This document shows positions 44,376 through 62,870 of a stretch of 64,000 nucleotides of DNA, one piece after another. The DNA is from an uncultured Phycisphaerales bacterium (lineage in GTDB: Bacteria; Planctomycetota; Phycisphaerae; Tepidisphaerales; Tepidisphaeraceae). The position numbers were made by a program, and so were the translations under genes. The number at the start of each line of letters is the position of its first letter. Within the stretch, counting starts at the first letter, position 1. The notes below the pieces were generated by a model, which was not told the DNA's origin, did not search any database, and worked only from the letters and a program-made list of their open reading frames with translations. The stretch spans positions 3,872,001-3,936,000 of the forward strand of contig CAVWLP010000002.1 in assembly GCA_963755915.1 (NCBI GenBank), in the 5' to 3' direction.

Positions 44376-44377
44376 GG

Positions 44378-45474: not shown

Positions 45475-45647
45475 GGGATGATCCGTGGTGGGGACGCAAA
45501 TGGAAGACGCCCCGCGGTTCGACTGAGCTCACCGAAGTCAAGCCGGGCCGCTAAACATTGTGCGGTTTCAGAATTTGGGACTGCAACGGTTGGGCCAATA
45601 CAGACCCGGGCGTCGCGTGCGGCGGAGTCTGGATTCAAGTACCGCAT

Positions 45648-45833
45648 TCAGCGAGACTGTTTTCGTTTGGGAACTTTAGCTCCGGCCTTTCGGGCCTCGG
45701 CGAGGCCGATTGCGATGGCTTGCTTGCGGCTGGTGACTTTTTTTCCGGATCGGCCGCTTTTCAGGGTGCCAAGTTTACGTTCGTGCATGGCCCTTTCGAC
45801 TTTGCTGGATGCTTTCCTGCTGTATTTCGCCAT
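45648..45833 (-). CDS. DUF6496-like small basic protein
   Basis: KVERAMHE.K.GTLKSGRSGKKVTSRKQAIAIGLAEAR. Confidence 0.8.
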   Translation of the reverse strand: MAKYSRKASSKVERAMHERKLGTLKSGRSGKKVTSRKQAIAIGLAEARKAGAKVPKRKQSR

Positions 45834-46088
45834 GGGGCTCCTTTGCCGTTGGTACAGTAACGAGAATAAGCAATAGACGTGCCGGTCGAGGTGCGGAAAT
45901 CTATGGCGGTGAATGTGTCGGGGGCGATTGCGTGCAGGTAGGCGTTTACATTGGAGGAGCCGATGGGATGGCGAAGCTCATTTTCGTCGAGATACTGGAA
46001 TGTTCGCAGAAACCCCCCGGATGAGCCGATAAAATGTCGATGCTTGAAATCCGGGGCATCGACTTATAGACTTTGCGGCCGGAAACTC

Positions 46089-46160
46089 GCGGGCGTAGCT
46101 CAGTGGTAGAGCGTCACGTTGCCAACGTGAATGTCGAGGGTTCGACCCCCTTCGCCCGCT
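46089..46160 (+). tRNA. tRNA-Gly(GCC), CCA not encoded
   Basis: GCGGGCG/CGCCCGC acceptor stem, TCACG-TTGCCAA-CGTGA anticodon arm, GGTTCGA T-loop. Confidence 0.97.
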
Positions 46161-47487
46161 TGAAAACCCCATCCCTGCCGGATGGGGTTTTTTGTTGCCT
46201 ATCCCCGCCAGTTACAAGAGATAACGACGAGTCGCGGTGAGGGGTATCAATGCCGCTGACTGCCGAACAAAACCCTATTGCAGCCGATCTTGTAGTGACG
46301 CTTTCACGCCACCCAGGAACCACGTTGGCATCGGGCCGAGTACTTGGCAACGCCGGAAGTTTCTCCACGGCACCGGCAAGATCAAAGATTCTCGGATCGG
46401 TGTACACGTTCATCGTCAACCGCATATCGGTGTGACGCATCAGGCTCATGGCTACACGCGGAGCAACGCCAGCCTTGGCCAGCAGACTGCCGTAAGTGTG
46501 ACGGAGCGAATGGAAATCCGCTCGGCGGCGGTCCGCATCCTCAAAGGGGATTCCGGCTTTTGTCAGATATCGCTTGTGCGTATCCATCGACGGCAAGGTG
46601 CGGCACACCGATGCGGAATCGTCCGCGTCGCCACGCGATTCTTTCAGCAGCTTTGCCAGGTCATTTCGTAGCGGCAGTGCGTCGCCACGCTTGCCCTTGG
46701 TCGTTTCCGCCCGCAATTGAATGCAGGGCATCGGTGCATCGAGCTTCACGTCACCCCATCGCAATTGCCGCAGCTCATCGCGTCGCAAGCCCGTCCCCAG
46801 GATGATTCGATAGGCGAGTTGATGCCGGGCATGCACCGCGTCCATCAAGGCCGCTATTTCTGTTTGCGTCAGTGCCCGCCGCTGGCGGCGTAAGTGGCCC
46901 GTGGTTTCCACCGGAGTCACATCAGCGAGCGGATGAACCGCGAGGCGTTTCCGTTTGATCGACCATTTGCAGAAGGCTCGTACGGTTTCCAAGTAATGGT
47001 TTTGTGTTCGTGCCCCCATCCGCAGGATTGTGCCGCCATCCTTGGCAGTATGCCCCATCGTGATCGTCGCGGTATCTCGCCAGCGGATGAAGCTATCCGC
47101 CGAGACGCTCGAAAAAGTCTTCCAATCGCAGTCGGCAATCAACCGGGCCATCCGGGATTCGCACAGCCCAACATAAATCTCATCACGCCCCAATTGCCGG
47201 AGTTCCGCAATCCAGTCAGCGACGTGTTCGCAAAGCCGTCGATTCCGGTGTGCCTTGAACGGGTCCTCCAACCCTTCCGCCCCTTGGGCTTTTGCACGCT
47301 CAATTTTCGCCCCCAATTGCTCGGAAGCGGCTCTATCGGTGTAGCCTTTGATCCGTCTGATTCTCCCGTCAACGTTGACCTGGACAGTGTAGAATCGGCT
47401 CTCTGCCCAATTCGCACCCGGAGTGTGCTTCGTGCATTTTCGTCCGTTAGCATCAATCCATCTTCCGCGTTTGAAAATACTGGCCAT
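46114..47487 (-). CDS. Tyrosine recombinase/integrase whose frame crosses attL
   Basis: GLRRDEL, TTKG, DFHSLRHT, MRHTDMRLTMNVYT (R-K-H-R-H-Y); GGAG RBS; stop codon lies inside the tRNA antisense. Confidence 0.93.
   Translation of the reverse strand: MASIFKRGRWIDANGRKCTKHTPGANWAESRFYTVQVNVDGRIRRIKGYTDRAASEQLGAKIERAKAQGAEGLEDPFKAHRNRRLCEHVADWIAELRQLGRDEIYVGLCESRMARLIADCDWKTFSSVSADSFIRWRDTATITMGHTAKDGGTILRMGARTQNHYLETVRAFCKWSIKRKRLAVHPLADVTPVETTGHLRRQRRALTQTEIAALMDAVHARHQLAYRIILGTGLRRDELRQLRWGDVKLDAPMPCIQLRAETTKGKRGDALPLRNDLAKLLKESRGDADDSASVCRTLPSMDTHKRYLTKAGIPFEDADRRRADFHSLRHTYGSLLAKAGVAPRVAMSLMRHTDMRLTMNVYTDPRIFDLAGAVEKLPALPSTRPDANVVPGWRESVTTRSAAIGFCSAVSGIDTPHRDSSLSLVTGGDRQQKTPSGRDGVFKRAKGVEPSTFTLAT
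46163..46193 (+). terminator. Terminator for tRNA-Gly, supplied by the element within int
   Basis: AAAACCCCATCC-ctgcc-GGATGGGGTTTTTT. Confidence 0.8.
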
Positions 47488-47507
47488 AGGACTCCATCGC
47501 TTTCGCA

Positions 47508-47738
47508 CTATTCTACACCGGCCCGCACCGCATTGGACTCGATCCACGTTTCAACTGTTTCGCGTTTCCATAACCGCAGCTTGCCGCCTATGCCAATGTC
47601 GGCCTTGGGAAATCGCCCCGACGAAATCAGCCGGAACAGGGTGCGGGACGCAATCGGAAGATAATAGCGCCGGATCATCGCCAAGGTCAGTAGAGCAGGC
47701 GGATTTTCCGTTTGCATATGGACCGTTTGAACCTGCAT
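47508..47738 (-). CDS. AlpA-type HTH excisionase candidate
   Basis: SRTLFRLISSGRFPK...RLWKRETVETWI, GGAG RBS, directly upstream of int. Confidence 0.8.
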   Translation of the reverse strand: MQVQTVHMQTENPPALLTLAMIRRYYLPIASRTLFRLISSGRFPKADIGIGGKLRLWKRETVETWIESNAVRAGVE

Positions 47739-48041
47739 CGTGAAATCTCCATTGTTCGATAACCGCCGCGCGAAACCGCGCGGCCTTGATTCCATTGACT
47801 GTACAATCTGGTCGGACGCTGCCCGTGGCCGCAGAACACACCCTAAGACTATTTGCGTCAAAGGGCGGAAATCTTTCACTAAAAATCATCAAGCGACCTG
47901 AATAGACCGGCAAATCTCCGGTCGCCGCAACGCGGCGTGTGCCTGTTCGGGTCGAATCCTGTAATGCCAGGGGCCAATTTCTCAATGACATTCCGCCTCA
48001 AATGCCGTTATAATGTGCGAAAGCCGTTAAGGATGAGGTCT

Positions 48042-48323
48042 ATGCAGCAAGTTCAATTGCCTGATCAACTCTACCGCGTAGCACAGCGACGCGCGTCGGA
48101 AGCTGGGTTTGCCACCGTCGAGGAATACATTGCCGATGTCGTAACCCAGGATGTCGCCGACGATACGGAGAATTTTGACCATTTGTTCACGCCGCAGGTA
48201 GTAAGCGAGCTTGAACAGATTTCCGCAGCGGCCAAGGCTGGCGGGAAAACTTACACGTCCGAGGAAGTCCGCGAACATTTCCGAAAGAAATCGGACGCAT
48301 GGCGAGCAAGCCACCCCGAATGA
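48042..48323 (+). CDS. Putative antitoxin
   Basis: QVQLPDQL..AGFATVEEYI RHH-like, acidic; stop overlaps toxin start. Confidence 0.7.
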   Translation: MQQVQLPDQLYRVAQRRASEAGFATVEEYIADVVTQDVADDTENFDHLFTPQVVSELEQISAAAKAGGKTYTSEEVREHFRKKSDAWRASHPE

Positions 48324-48628
48324 TCGTTGACTACACGCCGGAAGCTCTGGCCAATCTCGACGAGATTTGGGATTGGAACGCGGAGCAGCACGGTAGGGTA
48401 CACGCTGATTCGTACGTCGAATTCCTGCGAAAACGAACGGATCGCTTATCCACCGACTATGCCAGCGGCAAACCCGTGCCGACTAATCTATCGCTGTTTT
48501 ATCGCGTGATTCAAAAAAGGAAGAAGCATCACGGCCATATTGTCGTTTACGAAGTGAATGACAACGATGTTGTTCGCATCCTGCGTTATTTCCACACCGC
48601 CCAAGACTGGCAGAACAAGCTCAGATAA
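48320..48628 (+). CDS. RelE/ParE family toxin
   Basis: YTPEALANLDEIWDW...HIVVYEV..VRILRYFH. Confidence 0.85.
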   Translation: MIVDYTPEALANLDEIWDWNAEQHGRVHADSYVEFLRKRTDRLSTDYASGKPVPTNLSLFYRVIQKRKKHHGHIVVYEVNDNDVVRILRYFHTAQDWQNKLR

Positions 48629-48689
48629 ACGCGAGGCGAAATAATTTCCCTGCCCCCAATTCCGACATTGTACGCTCCACGAATCGGCC

Positions 48690-49130
48690 TCAAGGTACTA
48701 CTCCATGAGTACACGGAGCCTCTTCTCCGACGGTTCCACCTTGACACCGATTCGCTCCGCTGAAAGCAATTCTGTCCACCATCGGGGGCAGGGAAAAAGA
48801 TGGTTCAGGAAGAAAGACAATCGAATCATCCGGCAGCCAGGCCGACGCGTCGAATTCTGCCACGGCGTCGAATATCGTGACCCGGTACGCACATCCGATC
48901 CGTTTTGGGGCGGAACGCCTTCGCCGTAATCGTTCCCGCACGATAGCCCGAATTTGATCCTCATCTTTTCCGGCAAACCGTTGCGTTTGATATCCGCCTC
49001 CGACACGACCGTAGCGGATGCTGAGTGTCCAATCGTCAAGCAAATCCCGGCCAACGGTGATTTCGTAGCGGCGATGATGATTGAGATCGTCGTTATGCGC
49101 TTCTAATGCAATCGTGAGCAGGTTTTCCAT
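48690..49130 (-). CDS. WGR-domain protein
   Basis: RRYEITVGRDLLDDWTLSIRYGRVG. Confidence 0.7.
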   Translation of the reverse strand: MENLLTIALEAHNDDLNHHRRYEITVGRDLLDDWTLSIRYGRVGGGYQTQRFAGKDEDQIRAIVRERLRRRRSAPKRIGCAYRVTIFDAVAEFDASAWLPDDSIVFLPEPSFSLPPMVDRIAFSGANRCQGGTVGEEAPCTHGVVP

Positions 49131-49249
49131 GCGGCGAGATATTTCTCTTGTCCCCTTCGATGAATCGTGATACGCCTTGACCTGACCATAAACTATAGTT
49201 TTTGGCCGATGTAAAGGGGTTTTTGCAAGCAGTTGATTTGTCGAGGGGC

Positions 49250-49870
49250 ATGACCGGAAATCAGGGGGAGGTTTTTGGCCAGGGGGCGAACGACCGTTTA
49301 CGCGTCGGGCTGTATGCACGTGTTTCGACTCACGACCAGCAGACATTGCCACTGCAAATTTCCGCAATGCGGGAATACGCCGAGCGACGGGGCTGGACCA
49401 TCGCAATGCAAATCGAGGAAGTCGGTAGCGGGGCGAAGGATCGACCAGCCCGCGGTGAAATTTTACGAGCCGCGATGCGACGGGAGATTGATATCGTCCT
49501 GGTCTGGAAGCTCGACCGGTGGGGCCGGTCGTTGCTCGACCTTGTGACGACGTTGAAGGAATTGCATGCTGTCGGCGTCAATTTCGTTTCGCTGAATGAT
49601 TCACTGGATTTCACGACCCCGAGCGGTCAAGCAATGGCGGGGATGCTGGCAGTATTCGCTCAATATGAGCGGGACATCCTTCGGGATCGCGTCAAGGCTG
49701 GCATTGCCGAGGCCAGGAAGAACGGTAAGCCGCATGGCAGGCCCGCGACGGTGACCGGCCTTGCGGATGAGGCAAACAAGCTGTTTCTTTCAGGAATCAG
49801 CAAGAGCCAGATCGCCCAGCGGCTCGGTATTGGGAGAACTTCGGTGCGGAGGCTTCTTACGGCTGTATAA
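49250..49870 (+). CDS. Serine recombinase (resolvase/invertase)
   Basis: YARVSTHDQ, VWKLDRWGRS, C-terminal HTH SQIAQRLGIGRTSVRR. Confidence 0.93.
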   Translation: MTGNQGEVFGQGANDRLRVGLYARVSTHDQQTLPLQISAMREYAERRGWTIAMQIEEVGSGAKDRPARGEILRAAMRREIDIVLVWKLDRWGRSLLDLVTTLKELHAVGVNFVSLNDSLDFTTPSGQAMAGMLAVFAQYERDILRDRVKAGIAEARKNGKPHGRPATVTGLADEANKLFLSGISKSQIAQRLGIGRTSVRRLLTAV

Positions 49871-50622
49871 TCGTGAGATTTGGGGGGCCGAACACCTGAG
49901 CCAGTGGGCGGATTAGAGTCAGGTCGTGCGTGGCAATGGCGTCAACGCGAGATAAGAAAGCAAGGTAGGTCAGATCTGCAAGATCGTTTGCCAGCTTCTT
50001 ATCTCCCAAGTGGCAGGCGTGGTTTCCGTTAAGACGGTAATGGAACGCTAGAAAATTGCGTAGGCGGTGCCAGTCGTATATCAGCCACCCAGGCTCCGGC
50101 ACGTCCTTCATCTGATAGTATTTCGCAATTGTTTCCCCCCTAACCTTTTTTGCTTCGGGCGGTGCAAACAGCTCAAGGTACTTGTTTGCACCCGTTACAA
50201 TATCTACCGACCTGCAACTTGCGAAAGTGCCGTTGTGTTTTTCATTCCACAGTCGTTCAAGCGCATTTTTGAACTCTTGCGGCTCGTCTCTCTCGAAAAA
50301 GTCTCGAACCTCTTGCACAGCGCCGATCCCTCGTGCGCTGATCGCGGCGTCGATTAATTCCTTACTGTTGGGATGTACCACGTCCTCTATCCGCTCACTC
50401 GTCCTGACTTCTTCTTTGAGCAAATTGACCAGCGCGCGAGTGAGCAAGGTTAAGCCCCGCGAGTTTTTTGAAGTACGTACAAGAATCGCTTCCATCGGAG
50501 CTAGTTGATATCTCGTATATCAATTCAAAGGTAAGCAAAACGGTATATTCGCGGAGGTCATTTTGCACCGATTCGCGTCCGGATGCTCTGAGATAGGACA
50601 AATCAACGATCGCGGTTGGCAT
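49857..50622 (-). CDS. Hypothetical protein, possible PIN-like nuclease (frameshift near 50490)
   Basis: AIVDLSYL..ELIYE N-terminus; NDLADLTY..AIATHD C-terminus. Confidence 0.45.
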
Positions 50623-50825
50623 GATTCATCCTCCTTTTTCTTCTTGAGGAGTTTAACGTCATTCCCCTTCTCACTTCACCGCCCGGGTTTTGGCCTACCT
50701 GTAAGCGGCTCTCAATCCGACATCCAGGGCCAACTTTATCTTTAAGCAGCAAGGGAATTTGATGAAGGCTCGGCGGTTTGACTGTCCGTTCCAACCTTTG
50801 TGGCCACACCGAATGGGTTGGGTTT

Positions 50826-51455
50826 TCAGATTTGTTCCAGGCATTTGATAATGCTTATGTAGTCTGGTTTATCCTTCATTATTTCGTTCTGCAAGCCGCC
50901 TATTACTGATTGCCTGCGGAGGGCACAGCCGCACCACGCCATATAGACCTGTAGTGCCCCTAGCACAGCTACCGAGATTAAGATCGTGCTGCTAAAGAAG
51001 TGGCTTACGACAACAAACAACGTCACATAGACTGTTAACACCACAATTGCCGTAGGCGTGTTGTGATGCGAAGGTTTTCCGTTGATCCTCTTTTGTCTGC
51101 ATCGGACGTAGGGTATGTGGTTCAGAAGCTCGCCAATAACCGGAGAATCAAGATACCCCTTCACCAGATCGTCGGCGGAAAGGTGCATCTTATTATTACA
51201 ATCGCACCAGCTTGCCACTCCCATTCCGATGCTCAGAATCGCTACGACAATCAAAACGGTGCCGCCGAAAAAGTAGTTTGCCGTGTAAAAGATTGCCGCT
51301 TCGGTTATCAGGAGCAGAATGCCAGAAATCACCATGTCGCGTGATTTATACGGATGGATGTCGTCGAAAGAGTGCTTATATTGATGCACAGCTTCTTTTT
51401 CCTTCGATTTTGCTGCGGACTTGGCGTCCCTGGTGTAGATCGGCAACGCGGGCAA
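50826..51455 (-). CDS. Four-TM membrane protein with internal duplication
   Basis: Two hydrophobic hairpins each ending WCxC; low GC. Confidence 0.55.
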   Translation of the reverse strand: MPALPIYTRDAKSAAKSKEKEAVHQYKHSFDDIHPYKSRDMVISGILLLITEAAIFYTANYFFGGTVLIVVAILSIGMGVASWCDCNNKMHLSADDLVKGYLDSPVIGELLNHIPYVRCRQKRINGKPSHHNTPTAIVVLTVYVTLFVVVSHFFSSTILISVAVLGALQVYMAWCGCALRRQSVIGGLQNEIMKDKPDYISIIKCLEQI

Positions 51456-51680
51456 AGCCTATTACAAATACGACGATTGCCGGTTGTGTCTCCAATTGGC
51501 TGATAACAAGCCGTGGCGCCGTGCAAAGCCGCCCCAGCGAATTCATGGCCGATAACTGCGGGAAAGGATGGTAATGGCCACATGCAAAGCAGATGTCGCG
51601 AGAAGGCAGCCATGGGGGGTTTGGCTCTGCTCTTCTGCGGCAAATCTCAAGCAGACCGTCTCATCGTCCGAAACAACCTG

Positions 51681-52193
51681 ATGGGAAGTTTTTATTTCGT
51701 GTTCGTTGCGCTGGCTGCGATCGCTGCGTGGAAAATTCCCGCTTTAGTAAAACTCACCCGGGCGTGGCATGCCGGTGTCTCGGCGATGAGGAGGGTTAAA
51801 TCGCTGATGCCTGCACATTCCGAAAACGAAATTTGCGCCGCTAAATGGGTTGTTGAAGATTGGTTGCGGTGTGCGCAGGCACACATGGCTGTTTCTTTTC
51901 TCGAAGAAAAGATCGGCGTGGGTGCAGATGTGATTGGCGATTTGCTGTTTCGATCCTCGGCGGAGGCTATAACTAATGGGCCGGACGAATTCGGCGACGT
52001 TCTCGGCCACACCTTGCTAAAGCCGATAACCGACGCTGACGCGAAGTTAGACATTGCAAACAGAACTCAGAATTGGGAGAAGCTTAAAAAGGAAGCAGAA
52101 ACGCTCGCTATGTGTCTTAGGGCGATGGACGAGGGCCGGAATTCAGCAGCCTGTCGCAATGCGGATTCGGGTGCGGTTGTAGTTAATAGTTAG
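51681..52193 (+). CDS. Hypothetical protein with N-terminal TM
   Basis: MGSFYFVFVALAAIAAWKIP..., open to 52193. Confidence 0.45.
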   Translation: MGSFYFVFVALAAIAAWKIPALVKLTRAWHAGVSAMRRVKSLMPAHSENEICAAKWVVEDWLRCAQAHMAVSFLEEKIGVGADVIGDLLFRSSAEAITNGPDEFGDVLGHTLLKPITDADAKLDIANRTQNWEKLKKEAETLAMCLRAMDEGRNSAACRNADSGAVVVNS

Positions 52194-52301
52194 TCGAATC
52201 TGTAATTGTCGTTTGGTCTGCCAACCATTCATGTGAGTGACGTGTCCTTCGGTCACCAGTCTCACCTTTCACGAATCAGTGGCCGTTGGCATGCTCGGAA
52301 A

Positions 52302-52679
52302 TTACCAAACGATTTCCTCAATAATTGCCGTCTTTTCATTTGTTTTCAGGCTATTGGGTCTGTCCCCTTCCTGCACCCACGCCACGCGGTGACGGGCGAT
52401 TCCTTGAAACAACCGAACTTCGGGCCGGACTTCTGCGTTCAGACTCCGGCCTTTGATATGAATTACATCGCCGTGAACTTGTAGGGTGATGCCATCCGTG
52501 GGGTTGAATTCGACGCGTTCGATCCATGAATATGCAACGGCCAACACATTGCCGGATTTCTTTCGCAATTCCAGCATCGAGGCCCGCTCGCGAACACCCC
52601 GCAGCCAGCCAAACGAATGAAAATCATCCACGGCGCCACCGTCGCCGGAGGGGGTCAGGTCGAACCGATCCTCACTCAA
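52302..52679 (-). CDS. Hypothetical protein downstream of relaxase
   Basis: MLELRKKSG..AVAYSWIERVEFNPTDGITL..IKGRSL; co-oriented with mob. Confidence 0.6.
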   Translation of the reverse strand: MSEDRFDLTPSGDGGAVDDFHSFGWLRGVRERASMLELRKKSGNVLAVAYSWIERVEFNPTDGITLQVHGDVIHIKGRSLNAEVRPEVRLFQGIARHRVAWVQEGDRPNSLKTNEKTAIIEEIVW

Positions 52680-52702
52680 GCCCAGGGCGATGATGCAGAA
52701 AC

Positions 52703-55339
52703 TTATCTGTCATACTCAATCCCCTCGCGGGTGGGCGTCCTCTCATCCCGTGCCCGCGTTATTTCCGCCATTCGTTCCATTTGCATCATGCGAGCGCGAT
52801 AATCCCGATCCATGACGAACTCCGTTGCCGACAACCGCTCATCGGGACGACTAACGGCTTCGAGCAGCGATTCCCTATCATCCGTATAGATCGTGGCCTG
52901 TTGCCTTCCCCTCGAAACCGACACATAGAATTGCTCACGCGATGAAGCTGGGAACGACTCGGAGGATTGCCCGATGAACACGCGGTCCACGGTTTTTCCC
53001 TGGCTCGCATGGCTCGTGACGACGTACCCATAGTCCAGATGCCCGAAGTTTTTGTTGATGGTCCAACCGTTATCGAGCCGAATATCGCCTTGCCGGGTGA
53101 ATCCGTCCACCACGTATTGCGCGCCGTTATTGAGCCGGTGCTTGCCATCGGCGGTTTTCCCGTTTTGCGTGACACGGAGGAGATCGCCCTCAGCGATGGT
53201 AATGGTTCGGGTGCGGTACTTCTGGAATTTGTTTGCCTGATCTAGTGGTAGCTCGCCTTTTCCGACGATGATGCGCTCGCCCTTGCGATACCCTTTGGCG
53301 TTTTGCTGAAACACAAGCACGTCGCCGGGAGCATAATTCACCGCGTCGCCACGCTCCGCTTGCGTCAGGTTTGTCTTTTGAAGAATCGAAAACTCGCGGT
53401 CCTCTGCATCCAACCGTCCCAAATCTTTCAGCGATTCGCGGATATGACCCGTAATGCGTTCGCCTTCCACATGGGTGGGGCTGACAACCAGAGCCGATTT
53501 CCCGGCGGCAACCGTCGCAACGTAATCGTCGGCCAGGGCTTTGTGCCGTTCGCCTTCGGGGACCTCTTTGATCCAGCCCAAGCGGTCAAGTTGCTGGAAT
53601 CCCTTTTCGGTGCGGCCATCGCTCAGCGATTGCACCGCCTGTTTGTATTCCCCCTTTTGCCGCTGAATCTCTTTAATTTCAGCGGCAACGCATCCGGCCT
53701 CGGATTCCAGCAGCCGTAACGCGGCACCATGTTCGACTGAGCCATGTTGCCTGCGGTCGCCGGAGAGTATTACGCGAGCTTCCAGTTTGTCGGCCAGGCC
53801 GAATACTTGGCCCATCGTTTTCGTTCCAATCAGCCCGGCCTCATCGATCCAGATAACTTGATCTTTGATTTGACCCTGTAATTCCTCATCGACGAGCAGC
53901 CGGGCAACAGTATCCGCGTTCTCAAACCCCTCACTTGCCAGTACGCCCCGGCTGGCGTCGGCGGAGGGTGCGAACGTGAAGACTTTGCTTCCACCCGCCT
54001 CGATAGCGTCCACCGCCTCACGCATCATGGTAGTTTTGCCGACGCCGGCGGCGCCGTTGACGATAATCACGCGATCGGAGGAATTCAGCACATGCTCGAC
54101 CGCCCGACGTTGCCCGGCGTTGAGCTTAGAATCGCCGAAGTAATGGGAGCCGTTGCCCAGGCGGGAGCACGTACCCCGTCCATCGCGGGCAAATTTGAGC
54201 ATCCGCGTTTCTTCCATCAGCACGTCATTGGACGTAACCAATTTCCGGCCATCCCGCTCGCCGAAGACCAGATCGTGTTTCCGAAACGCGGACTCCACCG
54301 ATTGCAAACTCGCCTTCCCTACCCCATGCTTCAATGCCTTCGCCAACACCGTTCGCTCCGGCACGACCGAATTGCGCTCGAACCAGTGATTGGTGGCGAA
54401 TGTCACCGCCTCTTTGGCCAGCGTGGGATCTTCCGGCAATGCCGGACCACCTATGCTTGCCGCAACGCGGTTAATGGCGTCCTGATCCTCGACAGGCAAT
54501 CGGGACCGCCATTCTGCTTGCAATTCCGAAAACGGCATATCCTTCTTTTTGCTTTCCCGTGTCCGGGCACCAAGGGAATCTTTATCCGCCGGGTTAGTAA
54601 TGCCAGCGTCTTTCGCTGTTTGCTCAATTTGTGCTGTCCGGCGTGAAAAGGTCTTGATGACCGATTTCGGCATATCAGCCAGTTCCCATCCGGCTTTGGT
54701 CCGCTCAACCTCAAGTCCCAATTCCTCCATTCGCCGGGCGAACCGGGAATGGAATGCGGCCTCAAAGAAGGGGGCGTCACGCTTGAGTTCCCGGAACTGA
54801 CCCGCCTTCCAACGGTTTTCGCTTTCGTCGAACGTCGCATTGAAGACGAAGCAATGGGCATGAAGATGCGGATCGGGTATGCCGTCCACGGGTCGGGACG
54901 TGAAGTGGGTAAACTCGCCCCAGGCCATATTGCCGGTCGTGCGTTCCTCATTCTTACCGTTCACGCGCACGCGGGTTTTCATTTCCCGCTCGATTTCCCG
55001 CATTGTCTCATCGACGGAGGTTTGGAATGCTTCCAGAATCCGATCATCGCGTGTCAGACCGTAGAGCACGGACACGCTCTTGGGGACGTGGAAGTTGAAG
55101 TCGTAGCCGACGGTACGATCCTGATTGCGACGGGCAGTCAGAGGCAGCCCCGTTGCCGGGTCGCGGTTATCGCACAGGGCATCCCATGCCGCCTTGTCGA
55201 TGCCGCCAGTCAGGCCAAGCCGTTCGGCACCCTGCCCGCGCCACTGGCCGAGTAGCTCTTGGCCCTCGCTGTAATAGTCCGCCGTGCTGTAATAGCTCAT
55301 AGCCCCGGCGGCGGAATTGCTCTGAATGATACGAAGCAT
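52703..55339 (-). CDS. MOBF (TrwC/TraI-type) relaxase-helicase
   Basis: SYYSTADYY tyrosines, DFNFHVPKSVS, HFTSR..DPHLHAH (HUH), GAAGVGKTT, DEAG, SHASQGKT. Confidence 0.95.
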   Translation of the reverse strand: MLRIIQSNSAAGAMSYYSTADYYSEGQELLGQWRGQGAERLGLTGGIDKAAWDALCDNRDPATGLPLTARRNQDRTVGYDFNFHVPKSVSVLYGLTRDDRILEAFQTSVDETMREIEREMKTRVRVNGKNEERTTGNMAWGEFTHFTSRPVDGIPDPHLHAHCFVFNATFDESENRWKAGQFRELKRDAPFFEAAFHSRFARRMEELGLEVERTKAGWELADMPKSVIKTFSRRTAQIEQTAKDAGITNPADKDSLGARTRESKKKDMPFSELQAEWRSRLPVEDQDAINRVAASIGGPALPEDPTLAKEAVTFATNHWFERNSVVPERTVLAKALKHGVGKASLQSVESAFRKHDLVFGERDGRKLVTSNDVLMEETRMLKFARDGRGTCSRLGNGSHYFGDSKLNAGQRRAVEHVLNSSDRVIIVNGAAGVGKTTMMREAVDAIEAGGSKVFTFAPSADASRGVLASEGFENADTVARLLVDEELQGQIKDQVIWIDEAGLIGTKTMGQVFGLADKLEARVILSGDRRQHGSVEHGAALRLLESEAGCVAAEIKEIQRQKGEYKQAVQSLSDGRTEKGFQQLDRLGWIKEVPEGERHKALADDYVATVAAGKSALVVSPTHVEGERITGHIRESLKDLGRLDAEDREFSILQKTNLTQAERGDAVNYAPGDVLVFQQNAKGYRKGERIIVGKGELPLDQANKFQKYRTRTITIAEGDLLRVTQNGKTADGKHRLNNGAQYVVDGFTRQGDIRLDNGWTINKNFGHLDYGYVVTSHASQGKTVDRVFIGQSSESFPASSREQFYVSVSRGRQQATIYTDDRESLLEAVSRPDERLSATEFVMDRDYRARMMQMERMAEITRARDERTPTREGIEYDR

Positions 55340-55786
55340 CTGCCAGTTTACCCCAAGATTGCTTTACAAATCGTTAAGGTGGAGGTGTGCAGATGCACGC
55401 CACCCGCCTACCATCTATTGGCTTGAAAGACCTGATTATTTCATTTTGTGGCGACTGATTTGTGGCGGATTCGCACCGATTCGCGATGCCCTTCGGAACC
55501 CGTGGCCCCGTTTAGACACAATTAGTGGAAAATTCTTGAGTACCCACAGACATCTTCCCTTAGCACTGCTAAGGAGGATTTTCCCCGGGAAAACGACTTT
55601 GCGACGAAGCGCAAACCCGTTTCAACGACGCTACGGAGCGTCGTAAATCTGCATAAACGATTCCCCGGAAATACGACCCATCGGCAGACTGCCGATCAGT
55701 GCCATCGCTTCAGAATCTTATTGACCGAACGCGTGAACCGGCGTAACCAGAAATGAGAATCGTAAAATCGTAATCACGACGGATCA

Positions 55787-56425
55787 GTGCCCAAGGTCAT
55801 TGCAATTCTTAACCAAAAAGGCGGCGTCGGTAAGACCACTCTGGCGGTCCATCTGGCTACGGCATTGGCCCGCAAGAAACGGGCCGTCATATTGCTGGAT
55901 GCCGATCCGCAGGGCAGTGCCCTCGATTGGGCCGCCGCCCGGCATGGCGATCCGCTGTTTCCCGTTGTTGGGTTGCCGAAATCATCAATCCACAAGGAAC
56001 TACCCGCCCTGGCCGCCAGCTATGAGTTGGTCATCATCGACGGCCCGCCGCGTGTCTACGATGTGGCCCGCTCGGCCATCATGGCCGCTGACCTGGTATT
56101 GGTGCCGGTGCAGCCGTCACCCTATGACGTGTGGGCCGCCAAGGAAATCATCGACTTGCTGACCGAGGCATCCATTTACAAGCCGAACCTCCGCAAGGCA
56201 TTCATCATCAATCGTAAAATCGCAAATACGGCGATAGGCCGGGACGTGGCCGAGGCCCTCAGCGAGTATCCCATCCCGGTGCTGGAATCGGCTATTTGCC
56301 AGCGGGTTGCTTTTGCGGAAAGTGCCACGCAGGGCCTCACCGTCTATGAATTGGACCCGGAGATGCTGGCCAGCCAGGAGATGGACACGTTGGCCGAAGA
56401 AGTGGAAAGGATGCTCCGCAAATGA
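55787..56425 (+). CDS. parA: ParA/ParF family partition ATPase
   Basis: NQKGGVGKTT, DADPQGSA, IIDGPP, PVQPSPYD. Confidence 0.93.
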   Translation: MPKVIAILNQKGGVGKTTLAVHLATALARKKRAVILLDADPQGSALDWAAARHGDPLFPVVGLPKSSIHKELPALAASYELVIIDGPPRVYDVARSAIMAADLVLVPVQPSPYDVWAAKEIIDLLTEASIYKPNLRKAFIINRKIANTAIGRDVAEALSEYPIPVLESAICQRVAFAESATQGLTVYELDPEMLASQEMDTLAEEVERMLRK

Positions 56426-56583
56426 AGAAGGTGACATTTGGCGGCAAACGGCCCAGCACAGTGTCACGGGGCGCGCCAAAACCAGCCAGGGCGGGGCGCT
56501 TCAAAACCGGCCAATGTGCTGACGTATTCTATACCGCATCCGTTCTATCCGACGCAACTGTTCCTTGAGTTATTGGTCCCCGT

Positions 56584-57474
56584 TCACGCCGTCTGGCCGG
56601 CGGATACCCCCACATCAGAAGACAACGGCGGCTCTGTCACGGTGTCTTCCGGGGGGGAGCACCCTTCATCGCCGGCGGTACTCCGCCGTCCTTTTGGATT
56701 TGTCTTTTCCGGTGTCCCGGATTGGCCTGCCGTGAGCGAAGTCGAATGGCCCCCATGCCGAAGGCGGTAGCTCTTGCCGGTGATGTTGATGATCGTGGCG
56801 TGCTGCAGGAACCGATCCAGAATGGCCGTGGCCGCCGGCACGTCGCCGATCAGCTTGGCCCAGTCCTCCAGTGGACGGTTGCTGGTCATCATCGTCGAGC
56901 GGTTCTCGTGCCGGCGCATGACGATCTCCAGCAGGCATTCGCCGCTGCGCCGCGGAAGCTGCTTCATTCCCATGTCGTCGATGATAAGCAGATCAGGCTT
57001 GAGATACCGGGCCAGCGTCTTGTCCTGGGCTCCCAGATCCTCGTCGCCTAAAAAGTCGCGGGCCAGGTCGAAGATGGATCGGTACAGGACCACCAAGCCG
57101 CTCTTGATCGCCTGGTGTCCGATGGCCTGGGCCAAAAACGATTTGCCCACGCCGGGCGGACCCAGCAAGAGCACGTCACGTTTGTCACGAATGAACTGGC
57201 CGGCGGCCAGATCGTGAATCTGTTTGCGTTTGATGGAGGTGTTGAAGGAGAAGTCGAACTCGTCGAGGTTTTTGGTGTCGCGGAACATCGCCGCCTTGAC
57301 GCGCCGGCCGATCTGCCGGCTGGATCGGACGTTCAGTTCATCCTGAAGGATCAGTTCCAAAAACTCACTGTGGTCGAGCCGATTGCCGGCCGCCTCGCTC
57401 AGGCGAACTTCAAGGCTGCTCGCCAGACCTGAAAGCCGAAGTTGCTTGAGCGTCTGCATCAACGAAGGTCTCAT
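56584..57474 (-). CDS. istB: IS21 helper AAA+ ATPase
   Basis: GPPGVGKS, LLIIDDMG, TSNRP, AILDRFL. Confidence 0.95.
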   Translation of the reverse strand: MRPSLMQTLKQLRLSGLASSLEVRLSEAAGNRLDHSEFLELILQDELNVRSSRQIGRRVKAAMFRDTKNLDEFDFSFNTSIKRKQIHDLAAGQFIRDKRDVLLLGPPGVGKSFLAQAIGHQAIKSGLVVLYRSIFDLARDFLGDEDLGAQDKTLARYLKPDLLIIDDMGMKQLPRRSGECLLEIVMRRHENRSTMMTSNRPLEDWAKLIGDVPAATAILDRFLQHATIINITGKSYRLRHGGHSTSLTAGQSGTPEKTNPKGRRSTAGDEGCSPPEDTVTEPPLSSDVGVSAGQTA

Positions 57475-59272
57475 GGGGTGGACTCCCTTCGGCTCTGCTC
57501 AGGGCAGGCCTGTAAAGGTTGTGCGGCAGGCAAAGCCTCCGCTTGGGTGATTGCGTCGCGTACGAACTGTCCGTAATCGGCCAGTCCGCGGATGATTGGA
57601 TGTTCCTGAACAAACTCGAAGTGTTGTTGAACCGGCGCGCCGTTTTGGTGTTCGATGAGCTGCCGCAGGGAGCGCAGGTGATACGCGCCATGCCCCAGAG
57701 CAATCTCGCAGGCTCGTTCCACGGCCGGTCGCGGCTGCTGATTGGCCAGCGACAGCAGCCCCATCAACACGCGCACGCCTTCGATGCCGCGATGCTGAAG
57801 CATTGACTGCGCCCACTGCGTGGCGTGCGGCCCGATGCATTCGATCCGCTGGAGAAGCCAGGTCGTTCCACGCTCGATGCCGCTGATCTTCTCCGGCAGG
57901 ATATGGGCGTCTTGCGTCGAGAACCTGCCCGGCGGACGCTGCGCGTGCAGAGCGATCGCACGCATCTTCTGATCGAACAGCCGGACCGTGCGCCGTTCCA
58001 CCGCGCCCAGACCCGCTGGCCCAAAAACTCCGGCGGGACCGAATAGTACGCCCCCTTGATCTCCACGTGCCCGTCGCGGTGAACACTGCGCAACGCCTCG
58101 GTGAAAAGATCGAATCGCACCGGCGGCAGAGCCAACAGTGCCGGCTTCTCTACCTGCTCGAAGACTTCCTTCACCTGCCGCCGCGTCGTGCCGTGGATGC
58201 GCGTGTCGGCCACGCTCTTCTCCCACGTCAGCAGATGCGCGTTCTGATCCGAGAGCGAGGCGAATTGCCGGCCTTTGAGAGCATTGCTCTTCACATAGCC
58301 GATGCCCCGCTCGATCTTCCCCTTGTGCCGCGGCGTGTACGGCTTGGTGGGCAGAATGGCGATTCCATAATGTTCGGCGAACGACCGGACCTTGGGACAC
58401 AACTCCGCCTCGAACCAGTCCGCCCGCGTCACCGCCGCGCGAAGATTGTCGATCACCAGCGCTGACGGCATCCCGCCGAAGTGCGTAAAGGCATTTTCCA
58501 GACAACGCAGAAAATCATCGGTCGTCTGCCGCTCCACCGCCTCGGCGTACCCCTTGCGGCTGTGGCTCAGCACAATGCGGAAGACCCAGGTTGCTTTGCG
58601 TTTGCCGTCAGGACCGACCAGGGCGCACCCCGGCCGAAGTCCACCTGCGCCTCGGCTCCCGGCTCGCATTCCATCCGGCGAAAGGGCGCCGGCGCGGCAG
58701 CCGAGAGCTTCTTGATGAACCGGCGCACGCTGTAATAGCTGCCGGCATAGCCGTGATCGCTGGAGATGTCTTGATAAATCCGCTGGGCCGTCAGCCCGGC
58801 TTCCAACTTCTGAACAATGACCTCACGCCAGGGCGATGCCGTACTGACCGACCCGATGGGCGCGCCGGATAACCCGGTGGGCGCGCTCTCCGAGCCGCCT
58901 GCGGCGAGCACCGTCGAGCCGCCTGCGGCGAGCACCGTCGAGCCGCCTGCGGCGAGCACCGTCGAGCCGCCTGCGGCGAGCACCGTCGAGCCGCCTGCGG
59001 CGAGCACCGTCGAGCCGCCTGCGGCGAGCACCGTCGAGCCGCCTGCGGCGAGCACCGTCGAGCCGCCTGCGGCGAGCACCGTCGAGCCGAGGGCGCGCTG
59101 GCCGGTTTTGAATCCGATCCGGGCGCCGCAGGATCGCCGCCCGACAACCGGATGTGGCGTCCAACGGTCTCCCGGTGAACGCCGAGTTGGCGGGCGATGT
59201 TCCGATTGGACCAGCCGCTGGCGCAAGTGCCAAAATTGCTTGTACTTCCGCCATCTTGAGTTGATTGGCCAT
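57471..59272 (-). CDS. istA: IS21 transposase (frameshifted)
   Basis: HTH NIARQLGVHRETV, EAQVDFG, IDNLRA, KGKIER, RIHGTT, YYSVP. Confidence 0.9.
58892..59089. repeat. 24-bp tandem repeat, 8 perfect copies plus 6 nt, within istA
   Basis: GAGCCGCCTGCGGCGAGCACCGTC x8. Confidence 0.95.
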
Positions 59273-59627
59273 CCCACCATTGGCTTGCGGCAACCGCCGA
59301 AAGCCAAGGTCGATAACCCAATCTCCTGTGCCTCAAAATGGCCGGTTTTGGCGCGCCCTCAATTGGCCGGTTTTGCGCGCCCCATGACAGCACCGCACCA
59401 ACCGGCAATGCCGACGCTTGGGTACATAACCGAGAGGCAGGGGAGCCGGAACCCATGAAGCGGCTCACTATTGACGTGCCGCTAAGCCTGCACAAGCGAA
59501 TCAAGAGTCAGTGTGCGATTGAAAACCTCATCATGGCGGATGTTGTCCGCGACTTGCTGGAAAAACGATTCCCGCCCGGCGGGCCACAATCGTAAATACG
59601 ATTTGTCGTGAATACGACGATACGGCT

Positions 59628-60248
59628 TTAGTTGTTGACAGGTTCCGGCAGGGCAGGGGCCGGTAATGCCAGAGTATCGTCGAGCGGCAATTCCTGCTGG
59701 CGGCTCGCGCCCTTCAAATGGTACGTCCGCACGAACGCGAGCCGGTCCCCGTTGAACATGAAACGTATGTTGATGAAGAAGACGCCGTCGCTGGTGCTAC
59801 GGTAAAGGAATTCTTTTTCGAGCAATTCACGCAGGCCCCGGCGGAAGGTGCGTTCATTCAAGCCGCGATCCTGTGCCATGTATTGGCTCAGTTCGATCTT
59901 GTCATTTCCGTGGTTTTCCCTGATTTGGTGGTAAACCAGTTCAAAGACCGCCATGCCCGATTTGGAAAGCCCGCAGGCTTGTTTGATGCCGTCCAGAAAC
60001 AGTTTCACGAACCGGCTGGCGTCCACTTCCTCCTGCCACCAGAAGCCCATGCCGCCGATGCCTTTGATTTCGCCGGTGCCGTTGTCCACGATGACGGCAG
60101 CCTTGCCACCAGGCACCTCGAAACGCTTCTGTCGCGTAGCCAGACCATTTGCCGGTGGCAGGCTGGGATTCTCACGATACACCGGGAGTCCGCGTTTCGT
60201 GGCGACATGGTTGGTTTCCGCTCGCAACTTTTGTCCGTTTTCGGCCAT
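59628..60248 (-). CDS. Plasmid replication protein, RepL-like winged helix
   Basis: EVDASRFVKLF, RTFRRGLRELLEKEFL..GVFFIN.RFMFNGDRL; GAGGGGG RBS. Confidence 0.7.
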   Translation of the reverse strand: MAENGQKLRAETNHVATKRGLPVYRENPSLPPANGLATRQKRFEVPGGKAAVIVDNGTGEIKGIGGMGFWWQEEVDASRFVKLFLDGIKQACGLSKSGMAVFELVYHQIRENHGNDKIELSQYMAQDRGLNERTFRRGLRELLEKEFLYRSTSDGVFFINIRFMFNGDRLAFVRTYHLKGASRQQELPLDDTLALPAPALPEPVNN

Positions 60249-60582
60249 TTTACCCCCTCTTTTTTGGTCAGGAACTACCAGCACCCTGTCACTATTCGGC
60301 CAATTTTGCAACTGGTTTTTGACCGTTGACGACCACAAATTGTCCGTTCTCGGACAGAAACTGTCCGTCGCGATCCAGATAAATCAAAGCGTTAAGCCGT
60401 TCCTCTTTCTTATACTAAAAAGCCTCTTTTTTTTGCCCCGACGCCGCGCAATGCAATTGAGCGCCGTAGGCGGCGGGGCCAAACCTTCCTGATGAGAACG
60501 CGATGCCCTGTGGATAAGCCGTGCAACGAACAGATGAGTCCGGTGCCAATCAGCACCGCTTTACCGTGTGGAACGGAGACGC

Positions 60583-61821
60583 TCAGCAGAAGAACTTAGG
60601 AGAGAGCCATTTCCTGAGCATGCGTTTGCCCGGCACCTCGATGATGCGATAGGTGCAAGTGGCCGCGACGGTGGTGACAACCAAGTAAAGAAGCAGTTTC
60701 AGGAGCGACACGGCGTATGCGAGCGTCGATGGAACATACGCGACGTATTGGGGCAGTACGTTGCTGAAAATCCAAAACTGCACGATGTAGACCGAATAGC
60801 TGATTTCACCGCCACCCTGCATGGCATGCGTGCTGCACAGTCGGGTCAGCAGGTTCGGGTGCCGGGAAGAGGCGTAGAGGAGGTACGCCAGAAAAGGCGC
60901 CCATCCGAAATTGTGTGCGAGGAACGGCAAAAAGCTTGTCGCAGGTAACAGGCCCGCGTCGCCAATCGCCAGGATGGCGATGGCTGCGAGACAGCAGAGG
61001 GAAAAAAGACCGCTGTGCCTGCGGCCACTCGGCGACTCGCCGCTGTGCTGAGTGAGCATGTACATTCGGGCGGCGAACGAACCCAAGATGAACTCGCCAA
61101 GCCGCACGTAGGGTGAGGCGTAGGTGAACCAGTTCCAGACATCCCCGCGGCCGGTAATGGCGAGGGCGGAGAGAAACGCCGTCACCTCCGTTTGTTTTGC
61201 AAATAGGGCGGCGAGAAGCGGAAAGCAGCCAGCCGAAAGCAGGATGGCGTTGCGCCGGATTTGAGGGATGGAAGCGGTGCGCCGGGGACGGCGGATCAAG
61301 TACAGGGCGAAACACAGGTAGAAGAAGCATTCGGTGCTGATAGACCAAGCCGGGCGGAAGGTAACCCACTGCACGTTCCACCAGCTCTGTGTCAGCGTGA
61401 AATAGCTGAGCTTCTGTGGCCAGGTGGCATGGCGGAACAGCGGCTTGTAGTTCTGACGACTGCACAGAAGGAATGTGATATAGAGCGGATAGAGTCGGGC
61501 GAACCTCGCCACCGCAAAGTCGCGAGCGGCCTGTCGCCAAGGCAGCCGAACGAAGCGGTCATAGTAGCCGTAGGTGATGACAAAGCCGCTGAGCACAAAG
61601 AAGAGCGACATGCCCAGGTGGGCAAGGCACACCACGTATTTGTGAGCGACAGAGTCCAATTGGCCGTAGGCGAATGTGGTGTCAGCACTGTGGGACACCA
61701 AGACCAGGTACGCGGCGATCGCTCGAACGCCGGTCAGATGGGGAATCGGCGGTCGCTTTACATATCCCGAGTTGGCCATGTCAATCGCGTCGAGGGTGTG
61801 TTGCTCGAATCGGCTTAGCAC
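60583..61821 (-). CDS. Acyltransferase family 3 (OafA-like) membrane protein
   Basis: LTGVRAIAA..V..SH, FFVLSGFVI, RFARLYP, WSISTE.FFY, ISYSVY. Confidence 0.9.
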   Translation of the reverse strand: MLSRFEQHTLDAIDMANSGYVKRPPIPHLTGVRAIAAYLVLVSHSADTTFAYGQLDSVAHKYVVCLAHLGMSLFFVLSGFVITYGYYDRFVRLPWRQAARDFAVARFARLYPLYITFLLCSRQNYKPLFRHATWPQKLSYFTLTQSWWNVQWVTFRPAWSISTECFFYLCFALYLIRRPRRTASIPQIRRNAILLSAGCFPLLAALFAKQTEVTAFLSALAITGRGDVWNWFTYASPYVRLGEFILGSFAARMYMLTQHSGESPSGRRHSGLFSLCCLAAIAILAIGDAGLLPATSFLPFLAHNFGWAPFLAYLLYASSRHPNLLTRLCSTHAMQGGGEISYSVYIVQFWIFSNVLPQYVAYVPSTLAYAVSLLKLLLYLVVTTVAATCTYRIIEVPGKRMLRKWLSPKFFC

Positions 61822-62238
61822 ATCCTTTGACGAATCCGCAAGCGGTTATCGGTGGCTCGGTGCTTGTCGCATCAACGGATTGTAACTGCTTGGAATCGTC
61901 CCCGCTTAGATTTGCAGTATCGTTGCCAACTGAACTAAAGCGATGCCTTGACCATCGCCACAATCCCGGATTTAATCGCCTTGTGGAGAGTTGGCCACGC
62001 AAGAGCCACGGCCAAGAAATCCTCATCCATCGGAAATGGCAACGAGGGAGGTGGTGCCGCTTTCACGCCACCCGTTTCCGAAATCGCTTTATTTCCGCCG
62101 GAATTCTCGGGTTTTGTCGAGGGTTCGACCCCCTTCGCCCGCTTTCAGGTTTTTCGCAGTCACTTCTCGCTACCGATTCCGAGTTTCATTTTTTGTTCGA
62201 CCACTGCTACACTGCCCCCGACTTAAATTTGGAGACTC

Positions 62239-62703
62239 ATGCCCGACAAGAAATCATCCGCATTGAAGCAGTTGATCGACGGATTACAGGAAGACCTTTC
62301 ACGGGAATATCAGGCGGTGATCGCCTATACGGTGTACAGCAACGTGCTCTCCGGTGCACAGTGGATGGATATCGCCCGGGAACTGAAGAAGCATGCATCG
62401 GAAGAGCTGCAACATGCGATGATCATCGCGGATCAACTGGATTACCTGGGCGAGATGCCGAACGCTTCGCCGAAGACGGTGAAATTGTCGAAGAAGGCTG
62501 AGGATATGCTTCGGTTTGACCTGGAGAACGAAACGGTAACGATCAAGGCATATCGCGAGCGGGTTCGGCAGGCGGAGGCGCTGGGGCACTATGCGTTGGC
62601 GGAGCAAATCCGGAAAATCATCGCGCAGGAACAGGAACACCAACATGATCTGGCGACGGCGCTGGGGATTGATGTGCCCAAGGTGCTGGAAGACGGGGCT
62701 TGA
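62239..62703 (+). CDS. Ferritin/bacterioferritin-like protein
   Basis: EYQAVIAY, EELQHA, DLENE, EQEH di-iron motifs. Confidence 0.85.
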   Translation: MPDKKSSALKQLIDGLQEDLSREYQAVIAYTVYSNVLSGAQWMDIARELKKHASEELQHAMIIADQLDYLGEMPNASPKTVKLSKKAEDMLRFDLENETVTIKAYRERVRQAEALGHYALAEQIRKIIAQEQEHQHDLATALGIDVPKVLEDGA

Positions 62704-62838
62704 ATCCGCCTCGATCGGTTTTAGGGGAAGGGCATTTTTCGCTTTACATCCGCAATGAGAGGCGCTAATGGGATTTACCGGGCTTTCTCCTGGTTTTTTA
62801 AGTTTGGAGGGTGCAGCGGAAATGTCAGCATCGGAGCG

Positions 62839-62870
62839 AAGCGCTCCCCTTCGGGTCGCGGCTAAACGGG
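62839..62870. repeat. REP-like repeat, family B, copy 2
   Basis: aagcgctccccttcgggtcgcggctaaacggg. Confidence 0.55.

Follow-up and report, generated by a model that had tools for sequence, protein, structure and literature searches.

The 64,000-nucleotide stretch of DNA analyzed here (positions 3,872,001 to 3,936,000 of contig CAVWLP010000002.1, from an uncultured Phycisphaerales bacterium; hereafter, the window) harbors an integrated element of about 16 kb whose tyrosine integrase gene (int) runs without a stop through the attachment core into the tRNA-Gly gene used as target, while an open frame stored behind the other copy of the core, and in the same phase, encodes a different C-terminal extension of the integrase (Int). 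It is probable that this is an integrative, mobilizable, plasmid-like element that carries the attP core and the candidate arm-type sites inside the 3' part of its own lambda-type int gene, the presence of the Int tail depending on the state of the element. The main features involved are the following (coordinates of the window; basis in brackets):

46089-46160, plus strand: tRNA-Gly(gcc), the integration target and the sole tRNA in the window (ARAGORN).
46132-46161: attL copy of the core, 30 bp, inside the int open reading frame (ORF) and read KRAKGVEPST (exact repeat, translation, phase 0, empty-site contig).
62115-62144: attR copy of the core, 30 bp, the displaced tRNA 3' end (exact repeat, translation, empty-site contig).
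46114-47487, minus strand: tyrosine integrase, integrated tail-less form, 457 aa (ORF, Phage_integrase domain, fold of the relative P0156).
61935-62114, minus strand: stored C-terminal extension of Int, 59 codons and a stop, with a predicted disordered linker followed by the AWP module (translation, family, alignment).
61941-62024, minus strand: predicted AWP two-helix hairpin, residues 41-68 of the 69-aa read (AlphaFold2, codon-position signature).

The element (referred to as E1; E2-E6 are the other Int/tail elements of the same genome, and L-numbers denote loci elsewhere) is bounded by an exact 30-bp direct repeat (46132-46161 and 62115-62144) and measures 15,983 bp. The last 29 bases of tRNA-Gly(gcc) come from the element-side copy of the core. 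Contigs of a soil metagenome (four runs, X1-X4, of one study) were aligned to positions 45700-62600, and one of them, 719 nt long and free of mismatches, runs from 46131 directly into 62115, the 30 bases of the core being common to both sides. It corresponds to tRNA-Gly without the element (the empty site) and locates the crossover inside the 30-bp core.

The minus-strand int ORF (46114-47547) carries the Phage_integrase domain PF00589 at residues 225-385 (73.1 bits against a cut-off of 27.1, E 3e-20). It contains no stop before the core, which begins at codon 464 of the ORF; the core is read as KRAKGVEPST and the frame ends with FTLAT (terminal residues ...KRAKGVEPSTFTLAT, then the stop), the stop codon at 46114-46116 being antisense of tRNA-Gly. 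Since the homologues begin at an internal MASIFK, whose ATG lies at 47487, Int is 457 aa long. On the attR side, the minus-strand read from 62144 to 61935 gives again KRAKGVEPST, followed by KPENSG...AWPTLHKAIKSGIVAMVKASL and a stop, for a total of 59 codons behind the core. The core is in phase 0 of both the int and the tail frame, and thus, the identical core being crossed in the same phase, the circle would encode a protein of 457 - 5 + 59 = 511 aa. A previous reading of the window, made from the sequence alone (the sequence-only reading), had claimed exactly this, i.e., an integrase ending in five tRNA-derived residues in the integrated state and, in the circle rebuilt in silico, continuing into an open attR frame of 59 codons; both parts hold. 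It had also placed all the catalytic residues in the part shared by the two forms, and in an alignment of 75 sequences R255, K284, R349, H372 and Y382 are invariant and H346 is near-invariant, all of them lying upstream of the core; their catalytic role is assigned by reading the motifs TGLR, HxLRH, RH and Y. Contigs from public runs span 46128-46451 and 46186-46437 with 0 differences; hence, the 3' end of int is not an assembly slip, and the indel or stop upstream of the core that would have undermined the sequence-only reading does not appear in these contigs. One given frame stays open for 59 codons by chance about 1 time in 10 at a G+C content of about 56% (our own arithmetic). The open tail frame exceeds chance, in that in all 13 related elements both frames are open and share one phase, each across a different core of its own.

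These elements were found in the same genome and elsewhere. The genome from which the window comes contains six tail matches and six integrases of the family, and in five of the six Int/tail pairs the two frames lie on one strand at the opposite ends of segments of 7.7-16 kb, each open frame containing one copy of an exact 18-30 bp repeat, with an equal phase in all five cases. Four of these cores correspond to the antisense 3' end of tRNA-Gly and tRNA-Met or to the sense 5' end of tRNA-Cys and tRNA-Val; the fifth is tRNA-5'-like, with no tRNA called. In 15 other tail-bearing genomes, the integrase profile revealed eight candidate same-strand pairs, in seven of which the two frames share an exact repeat of 25-57 bp, again in phase in all cases (7/7). 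A metagenomic element (L050), located at a tRNA-Asn gene, is in phase too. Overall, the phase is conserved in all 13 elements with a mappable core (five from the own genome, seven from other genomes and one metagenomic), against the one third expected by chance. Among the tRNA targets called are Gly, Cys, Val, Met, Ser, Ala, Asn and Leu, in both sense and antisense orientations; tRNA-Ser, Ala, Asn and Leu are among those called in the other genomes.

In two genomes of one genus, the duplicated core spans most of tRNA-Ala(tgc), and each element is flanked by two full tRNA-Ala(tgc) calls (1067-1139 and 6009-6081 in L037; 1087-1159 and 9212-9285 in L038). In L050, the tail-side flank upstream of the core (2600-2720) encodes a stem-loop-like peptide, EQKNTSGRDR, resembling the peptide on the int side; it may stem from a native tRNA terminator or have been left behind by an earlier element.

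The search for relatives of the tail (phmmer, with the 69-aa read against 1.84 billion representatives) retrieved 75 sequences at E<=1e-3, all of 31-185 aa and nearly all with the match at their C-terminal end. Aligned, 40 of these yield the consensus RxKGxEPxxNPxxSxxxxxxSxxGAAKAxxxxSxPxPADxDLxxxxxAWPxLPxAxRAGIxAMVxA. Its last part (ADxDLxxxxxAWPxLPxAxRAGIxAMVxA) contains the AWP motif that the sequence-only reading had cited, which is therefore real. The tail is covered by no Pfam or NCBIfam model. Within the phylum, the tail profile has a match in 77 of 401 sampled genomes, representing 73 of 288 genera, with the own genome counted in. The phylum of the sampled genomes is probably Planctomycetota, since the closest tail protein comes from a metagenome-assembled genome (MAG) of Tepidisphaeraceae, one integrase relative comes from a Phycisphaerales MAG, and the nearest clusters in the ESM Atlas are "hypothetical proteins" of 54-64 aa from Planctomycetota (scores of 0.85-0.88, below the 0.9 mark, and to be taken as a lead only). 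Phage and plasmid records searched with P0077 and with the tail protein P0026 gave no match over the tail, the E values of the tail query (0.1-1) being at chance level. An Aquisphaera plasmid integrase (H27) is a 330-aa enzyme without the tail.

In 36 tail frames onto which the codons were threaded, the mean pairwise nucleotide identity in the motif columns is 0.57, 0.67 and 0.42 at codon positions 1, 2 and 3, respectively. In several of these columns, position 2 does not vary at all and position 3 is close to background; a fixed position 3 is seen in the Trp and Met codons only. In the linker, the corresponding values (0.37, 0.44 and 0.30) show hardly any periodicity. The pattern of the motif, with position 2 above position 1 and far above position 3, points to selection acting on a protein rather than on a DNA site, and the aligned codons show the hairpin to be under such selection. 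When the tail alignment alone was given to AlphaFold2, two helices (residues 41-52 and 55-68) were predicted with a predicted local distance difference test (pLDDT) score of 95-98, behind a linker of low confidence. The tails of E2, E3 and E4 have no Met between core and motif, among the aligned relatives the residue preceding the motif is M, V, L or I, and the hairpin is translatable only as part of Int. In 25 of the 36 frames, a T-loop-like 9-mer lies upstream in the same open frame, against a chance rate estimated by us at about 0.04 per 300 nt; together with the short length of the 75 matches, this bears out the proposal of the sequence-only reading that orphan AWP micro-ORFs sit next to att sites.

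Some other candidates were discarded. The segment following the catalytic Tyr, DLAGAVEKLPALP, was compared with the DLxxVVxAWPxLP stretch of the tail as a possible internal repeat and gave a match too weak to be retained (hhalign, 13 columns, probability 10.7%, P 0.0029). As for the long frames with a tail match, L010 runs antisense to another gene; L043, L044, L047 and L048 belong to no Pfam family; L046 contains a primase domain; and in L045, an integrase, the tail-like match directly behind the catalytic domain is only weak. In one contig of another genome (L018), two AWP frames are arranged head to tail (919-1617 and 1621-2022) and may be the remnants of successive integrations at one site.

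The tail is also found in nature fused to integrases. Fourteen of 126 integrase-sized relatives end in the tail, and five others end in ...VEPSTFTLAT, that is, in the integrated tRNA-Gly form observed in the window. The tail profile, run against proteins of 325-2000 aa, has seven matches, all of them (7/7) carrying PF00589; the fused relatives score 56-76 bits for this domain. One of them, P0156 (518 aa), is the fused form of the subfamily of the window's Int and combines the stem-loop peptide with a GLEPT core and the hairpin. A tRNA-arm-like peptide, sense or antisense, occurs in the linker of most fused proteins. Among the long tail-bearing frames from genome assemblies, L049 is the only partial Int-tail fusion, and the metagenome scan for the DNA of fused forms gave three loci, none of them fused, one (L050) being an integrated pair. 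In ten full-length fusions, the mean pairwise identity is 0.53 in the hairpin, 0.43 in the catalytic domain, 0.31 in the N-terminal half and 0.13 in the linker; with its 0.53, the hairpin is the best conserved part of the fused protein, and the linker, home to the core and the arm-like repeats, can change freely along with the target. The conserved phase (13/13), the natural fusions and the coding signature agree in identifying the tail as the C-terminus of Int itself, as the sequence-only reading had maintained.

The AlphaFold2 model of P0156 has a mean pLDDT of 79.3; it is confident up to about residue 370, disordered at 385-482, and closed by two terminal helices (485-511). The body of this model, used in place of the window's own Int, matches the lambda integrase 1z19_B (Z 18.4, root-mean-square deviation (rmsd) 3.2 over 262 residues), and the Tn1549 integrase was matched as well; the full-length lambda Int was aligned to residues 19-364 of the model with an rmsd of 7.3-8.7. 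Docking cannot be read from the high pLDDT that the tail reaches in the full-length model, since the tail alone scores equally high. The prediction of a complex between Int residues 21-405 and tail residues 30-69 scored 0.00, without controls, and weighs neither way.

Three further features lie near the core, inside int or inside the tail frame:

46165-46198, plus strand: stem-loop and T-run, terminator-like on the tRNA strand, behind the rebuilt tRNA and inside the int ORF (sequence).
46292-46314: candidate arm-type site of the P arm, within the int coding sequence and about 153 nt ahead of the core as int is read (repeat D5, 91%, 16 exact bases).
62051-62073: candidate arm-type site of the P' arm, about 71 nt after the core start, in the tail linker, where it is read GGVKAA (repeat).

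The two arm-like copies of E1 form a repeat of 16-23 bp and fall in different reading frames. A nearly identical, equally spaced pair occurs in L050, and E6, L037, L038 and L039 have repeat pairs of their own comparable to that of E1; in these six elements, the direct repeats lie 137-171 nt before and 70-105 nt after the core start. Judging from their position and spacing, these repeats might represent arm-type sites for the N-terminal domain of Int. The terminator-like site (46171-46188, then TTTTTTGTTG) was scored as such on the plus strand only, and in the int frame the stem-loop is read QQKTPSGRDG, a peptide found again in relatives. The element evidently supplies a terminator for the rebuilt tRNA-Gly gene.

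On these grounds, the following working scheme can be proposed. In the free circle, int would be whole and would encode a 511-aa protein composed of the N-terminal and core-binding parts, the catalytic domain, a disordered linker of about 100 aa housing the tRNA-like core, and the AWP hairpin. Recombination with tRNA-Gly would cut int within the linker, so that the integrated copy would make a catalytically complete but tail-less Int of 457 aa, five new residues included, while the remainder of the linker and the hairpin would be parked at the other end of the element, untranslatable alone; excision would rebuild the full int gene. By analogy with the IntP and IntX forms of phage Mx8, the hairpin might be needed for efficient integrative recombination or serve another step of the circle state, and it could bridge Int protomers or recruit a conserved partner. 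Its loss on integration would then damp or redirect Int and stabilize the integrated state, resulting in a self-resetting, state-dependent control. A functional switch of Int by its tail can be inferred on good grounds from this analogy.

A number of observations weigh against this scheme or reduce the evidence for it. The sixth Int and tail of the own genome lie on opposite strands, 9 kb apart, and share no repeat, the Int frame (C2:3565429-3566583, plus strand, 385 aa) stopping soon behind the catalytic domain and the AWP frame lying at C2:3575371-3575712 on the minus strand; this may be a rearranged or decaying element. One candidate pair of another genome (L042) has no repeat, and in two tail-bearing genomes (G001 and G397) the integrase profile found no Int of the family. 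The 13 elements in phase include related pairs and do not all count as independent cases: the tails of E2 and E3 are nearly identical, L037 and L038 belong to one genus, and L050 is near E1. The circular attP junction, for which the sequence-only reading had suggested a search, was absent from the contigs of the four soil-metagenome runs over 45700-62600, where only the empty-site joint and a joint lacking an insertion sequence (IS) were found; this absence is weak evidence, since contigs drop rare forms. The stem-loop adjoining the core could halt some int transcripts; its terminator-like score was on the tRNA strand only. The conservation of GAAKA in the linker probably reflects in part a DNA site rather than the protein, since the partner copy in int is read in another frame. 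Finally, it is by analogy that the long and the short Int would differ in activity, directionality or stability.

Different explanations of the stored frame can also be considered. The AWP module might be an independent micro-protein gene, for example a small regulator or directionality factor acting in the integrated state, whose in-frame link to int would be incidental. Gene callers do predict a separate small protein, with all 75 matches within 31-185 aa; a database entry of 31 aa (P0005) starts at an internal Met of the window's tail, about one quarter of the aligned relatives have a Met just ahead of the motif, and the hairpin folds alone in AlphaFold2. However, such a gene would hardly keep its phase with int in 13 of 13 elements with different cores; moreover, its start is not conserved (M, V, L or I stands before the motif, with no Met in E2, E3 and E4), what lies upstream in the short predicted proteins is variable flanking sequence or the antisense of a tRNA, and 14 natural Int-tail fusions exist, so that this explanation is very improbable. 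It is even harder to believe, to the point of being nearly discountable, that attR is conserved at the DNA level alone, as a P' arm with sites for host factors, the open frame being a by-product of G+C content and no tail being made or needed. The direct repeats that flank the core in E1, E6, L037, L038, L039 and L050, the reading of their copies in different frames in E1, L038, L039 and L050, and the scarce periodicity of the linker (0.37/0.44/0.30) would fit such sites; they do not account for the coding pattern of the motif columns (position 2 above 1 and far above 3, with only Trp and Met codons fixed at 3), for the conservative substitutions (I/V/L, K/R), for the indels of whole codons in the aligned linker, or for a tail that in the fused proteins is more conserved than the catalytic domain.

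The remaining alternative accepts the fused protein and moves its role: the tail would serve another step of the circle state (replication, partition, transfer or turnover), or would have little effect, instead of controlling recombination. The conservation of the tail across integrases sharing about 30-40% identity fits a conserved outside partner better than a co-evolving Int surface, and the element does possess relaxase, ParA and RepL-like genes acting on the circle. Yet, the tail is attached to recombinases only (7/7 long matches with PF00589), and in Mx8, the only studied case of this architecture, the integrase behavior was altered according to the review PMC6070905; on balance, this alternative is unlikely. 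Returning to the tail as a state-dependent part of Int, a broader version can be formulated, in which the AWP hairpin is a portable module, present in the free state only, of a large group of bacterial integrases probably extending across Planctomycetota, with the full-length Int driving integration and the tail-less Int held back until excision is triggered. Since attP would lie inside the disordered linker, the hairpin would be made in the circle only, and no separate state sensor would be needed. We regard this version as possible and put it forward tentatively; if it is true, it would be the bacterial equivalent of the idea, put forward for archaea, that the complete gene serves as directionality factor, with the difference that a working catalytic protein is kept in both states.

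Apart from int and the tail, the element carries the following features:

52703-55339, minus strand: TrwC-type relaxase with helicase domains, for mobilization (PF08751 1.8e-71, PF13604 1.2e-46).
55787-56425, plus strand: ParA-type partition ATPase (PF13614, PF01656).
59628-60338, minus strand: RepL-like putative replication protein, a weak match (PF05732 4.8e-05).
60583-61821, minus strand: Acyltransferase_3 cargo gene, which in the circle would directly succeed the tail (PF01757 6.7e-18).
56462-59392: IS21-family insertion within the element (IstB and IstA pieces), outside the int switch (Pfam, word depth, IS-skipping contig).

An ORF with a WGR domain (Pfam) is also present within the element. 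The relaxase, the ParA and the RepL-like gene agree with the mobilizable, plasmid-like nature that the sequence-only reading had assigned to it. None of the 19 ORFs scanned against Pfam is above the cut-off for type IV secretion families, the small ORFs being only partly scanned; having its own Int, att sites and a relaxase, with no mating-pore match in these 19 ORFs, the element is an integrative mobilizable element. A 146-aa frame directly upstream of int (47551-47991, minus strand), without Pfam or NCBIfam match, is by its position a candidate excisionase or regulator.

The IS21 insertion has a word depth of about 135, against about 5 elsewhere, and one contig of run X2 skips from 56453 to 59388, thus representing the element without the IS. 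IstB lies at 56584-57474 and IstA is split into two pieces (57764-58669 and 58791-59504), between which a 24-nt tandem repeat of about nine copies, several of them identical, occupies 58843-59130. The high-depth contigs hold one extra base with respect to the window at 57992, 58620, 59090 and 59220, and for this reason the broken IstA frame may be a decayed copy or an assembly slip. Indels of 1-2 bases between the window and low-depth contigs of the same study occur at 49140, 49244, 50431, 52679 and 55445-55449, inside element genes other than int; strain variation or errors of assembly could explain them, and among those listed none falls in the 3' end of int or in the tail. Beyond the right repeat, outside the element, there is a ferritin/Dps-like gene. 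The GC skew (1-kb windows) is unusually strong in the chromosomal flanks 40000-45500 and 62500-64000 (+0.17 to +0.40) and about zero in the element, which fits a foreign origin of the latter.

The finding has some practical consequences. It explains a class of "hypothetical" micro-ORFs adjoining tRNA fragments, and it provides a mapping rule for poorly studied genomes, in which an integrase running into a tRNA gene and an in-phase AWP frame mark the two ends of an element. The long and the short Int would be a clean system for studying how the direction of a recombinase is set by the physical state of its own gene. To our knowledge, planctomycetes have few genetic tools. Integrases whose tRNA targets are defined could be turned into planctomycete integration vectors, on the model of the Mx8 int-attP module, used for Myxococcus integration vectors according to the review PMC6070905.

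The closest known architecture is that of Mx8, whose attB is reportedly a tRNA gene and whose primary descriptions are said to be those of Tojo (1996) and Magrini (1999). According to the review PMC6070905, the attP core of Mx8 (and also of Mx9) lies within the int coding sequence, behind the catalytic Tyr, and integration gives int a new 3' end and the integrase an altered behavior, the enzyme thus existing in two state-dependent forms. The Mx8 Int record shows the catalytic Tyr, a linker with the tRNA-arm-like peptide STGLEP, and then about 110 further residues, so that a tRNA-like core does lie inside the ORF, and the precedent invoked by the sequence-only reading (attP within int) is borne out by the record as well as by that source. 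As in the IntP/IntX pair of Mx8, the att core of the window's Int lies inside the ORF, downstream of the catalytic Tyr, and integration swaps the C-terminus. The two integrases have, in contrast, no detectable homology: the best BLASTP hit of P0156 (E 0.044) falls on a mis-registered stretch, the tail profile has an hhalign probability of 0.09%, and the Mx8 tail lacks the AWP motif. Unlike the phage, the element is of the relaxase/ParA/RepL type and has a probable planctomycete host, and its short tail module is common to many diverged integrases with many tRNA targets in both orientations. Judging from these comparisons, the likeness to Mx8 is one of architecture and working principle, not of family.

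A second comparison concerns the suicidal integrases of the SSV1 type, from archaeal viruses and plasmids, in which, as reported in the review PMC8371274, the att site lies within int, the complete gene exists only in the free element and can be seen as its own directionality control, integration partitions the integrase into a split enzyme that might be inactive, and such integrases are called exclusive to archaea. The window's int shares with them the internal att site and a gene that is whole only in the free element. Unlike them, it is cut behind all the catalytic residues, the integrated Int keeping the whole PF00589 domain and the catalytic Tyr, and its family is bacterial. Until now, an att site inside int has passed for an oddity of the myxophages Mx8 and Mx9 and for a specialty of archaeal viruses; here, it is the rule for a whole family of elements.

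In the classical lambda-type cases, attP lies beside int and the protein is identical in both states. The family described here resembles the lambda-type heterobivalent integrases in fold (P0156 against 1z19_B), in the regeneration of the tRNA target and in the arm-like repeats on both sides of the core, and differs from them in the predicted disordered linker of about 100 aa and in the C-terminal hairpin. No description of an AWP-tail family was found in the consulted parts of the literature on Mx8 and attP-in-int systems, on planctomycete integrative elements, and in a preprint on the planctomycete plasmidome. It looks like a widespread and apparently undescribed family whose principle was already known from phage Mx8.

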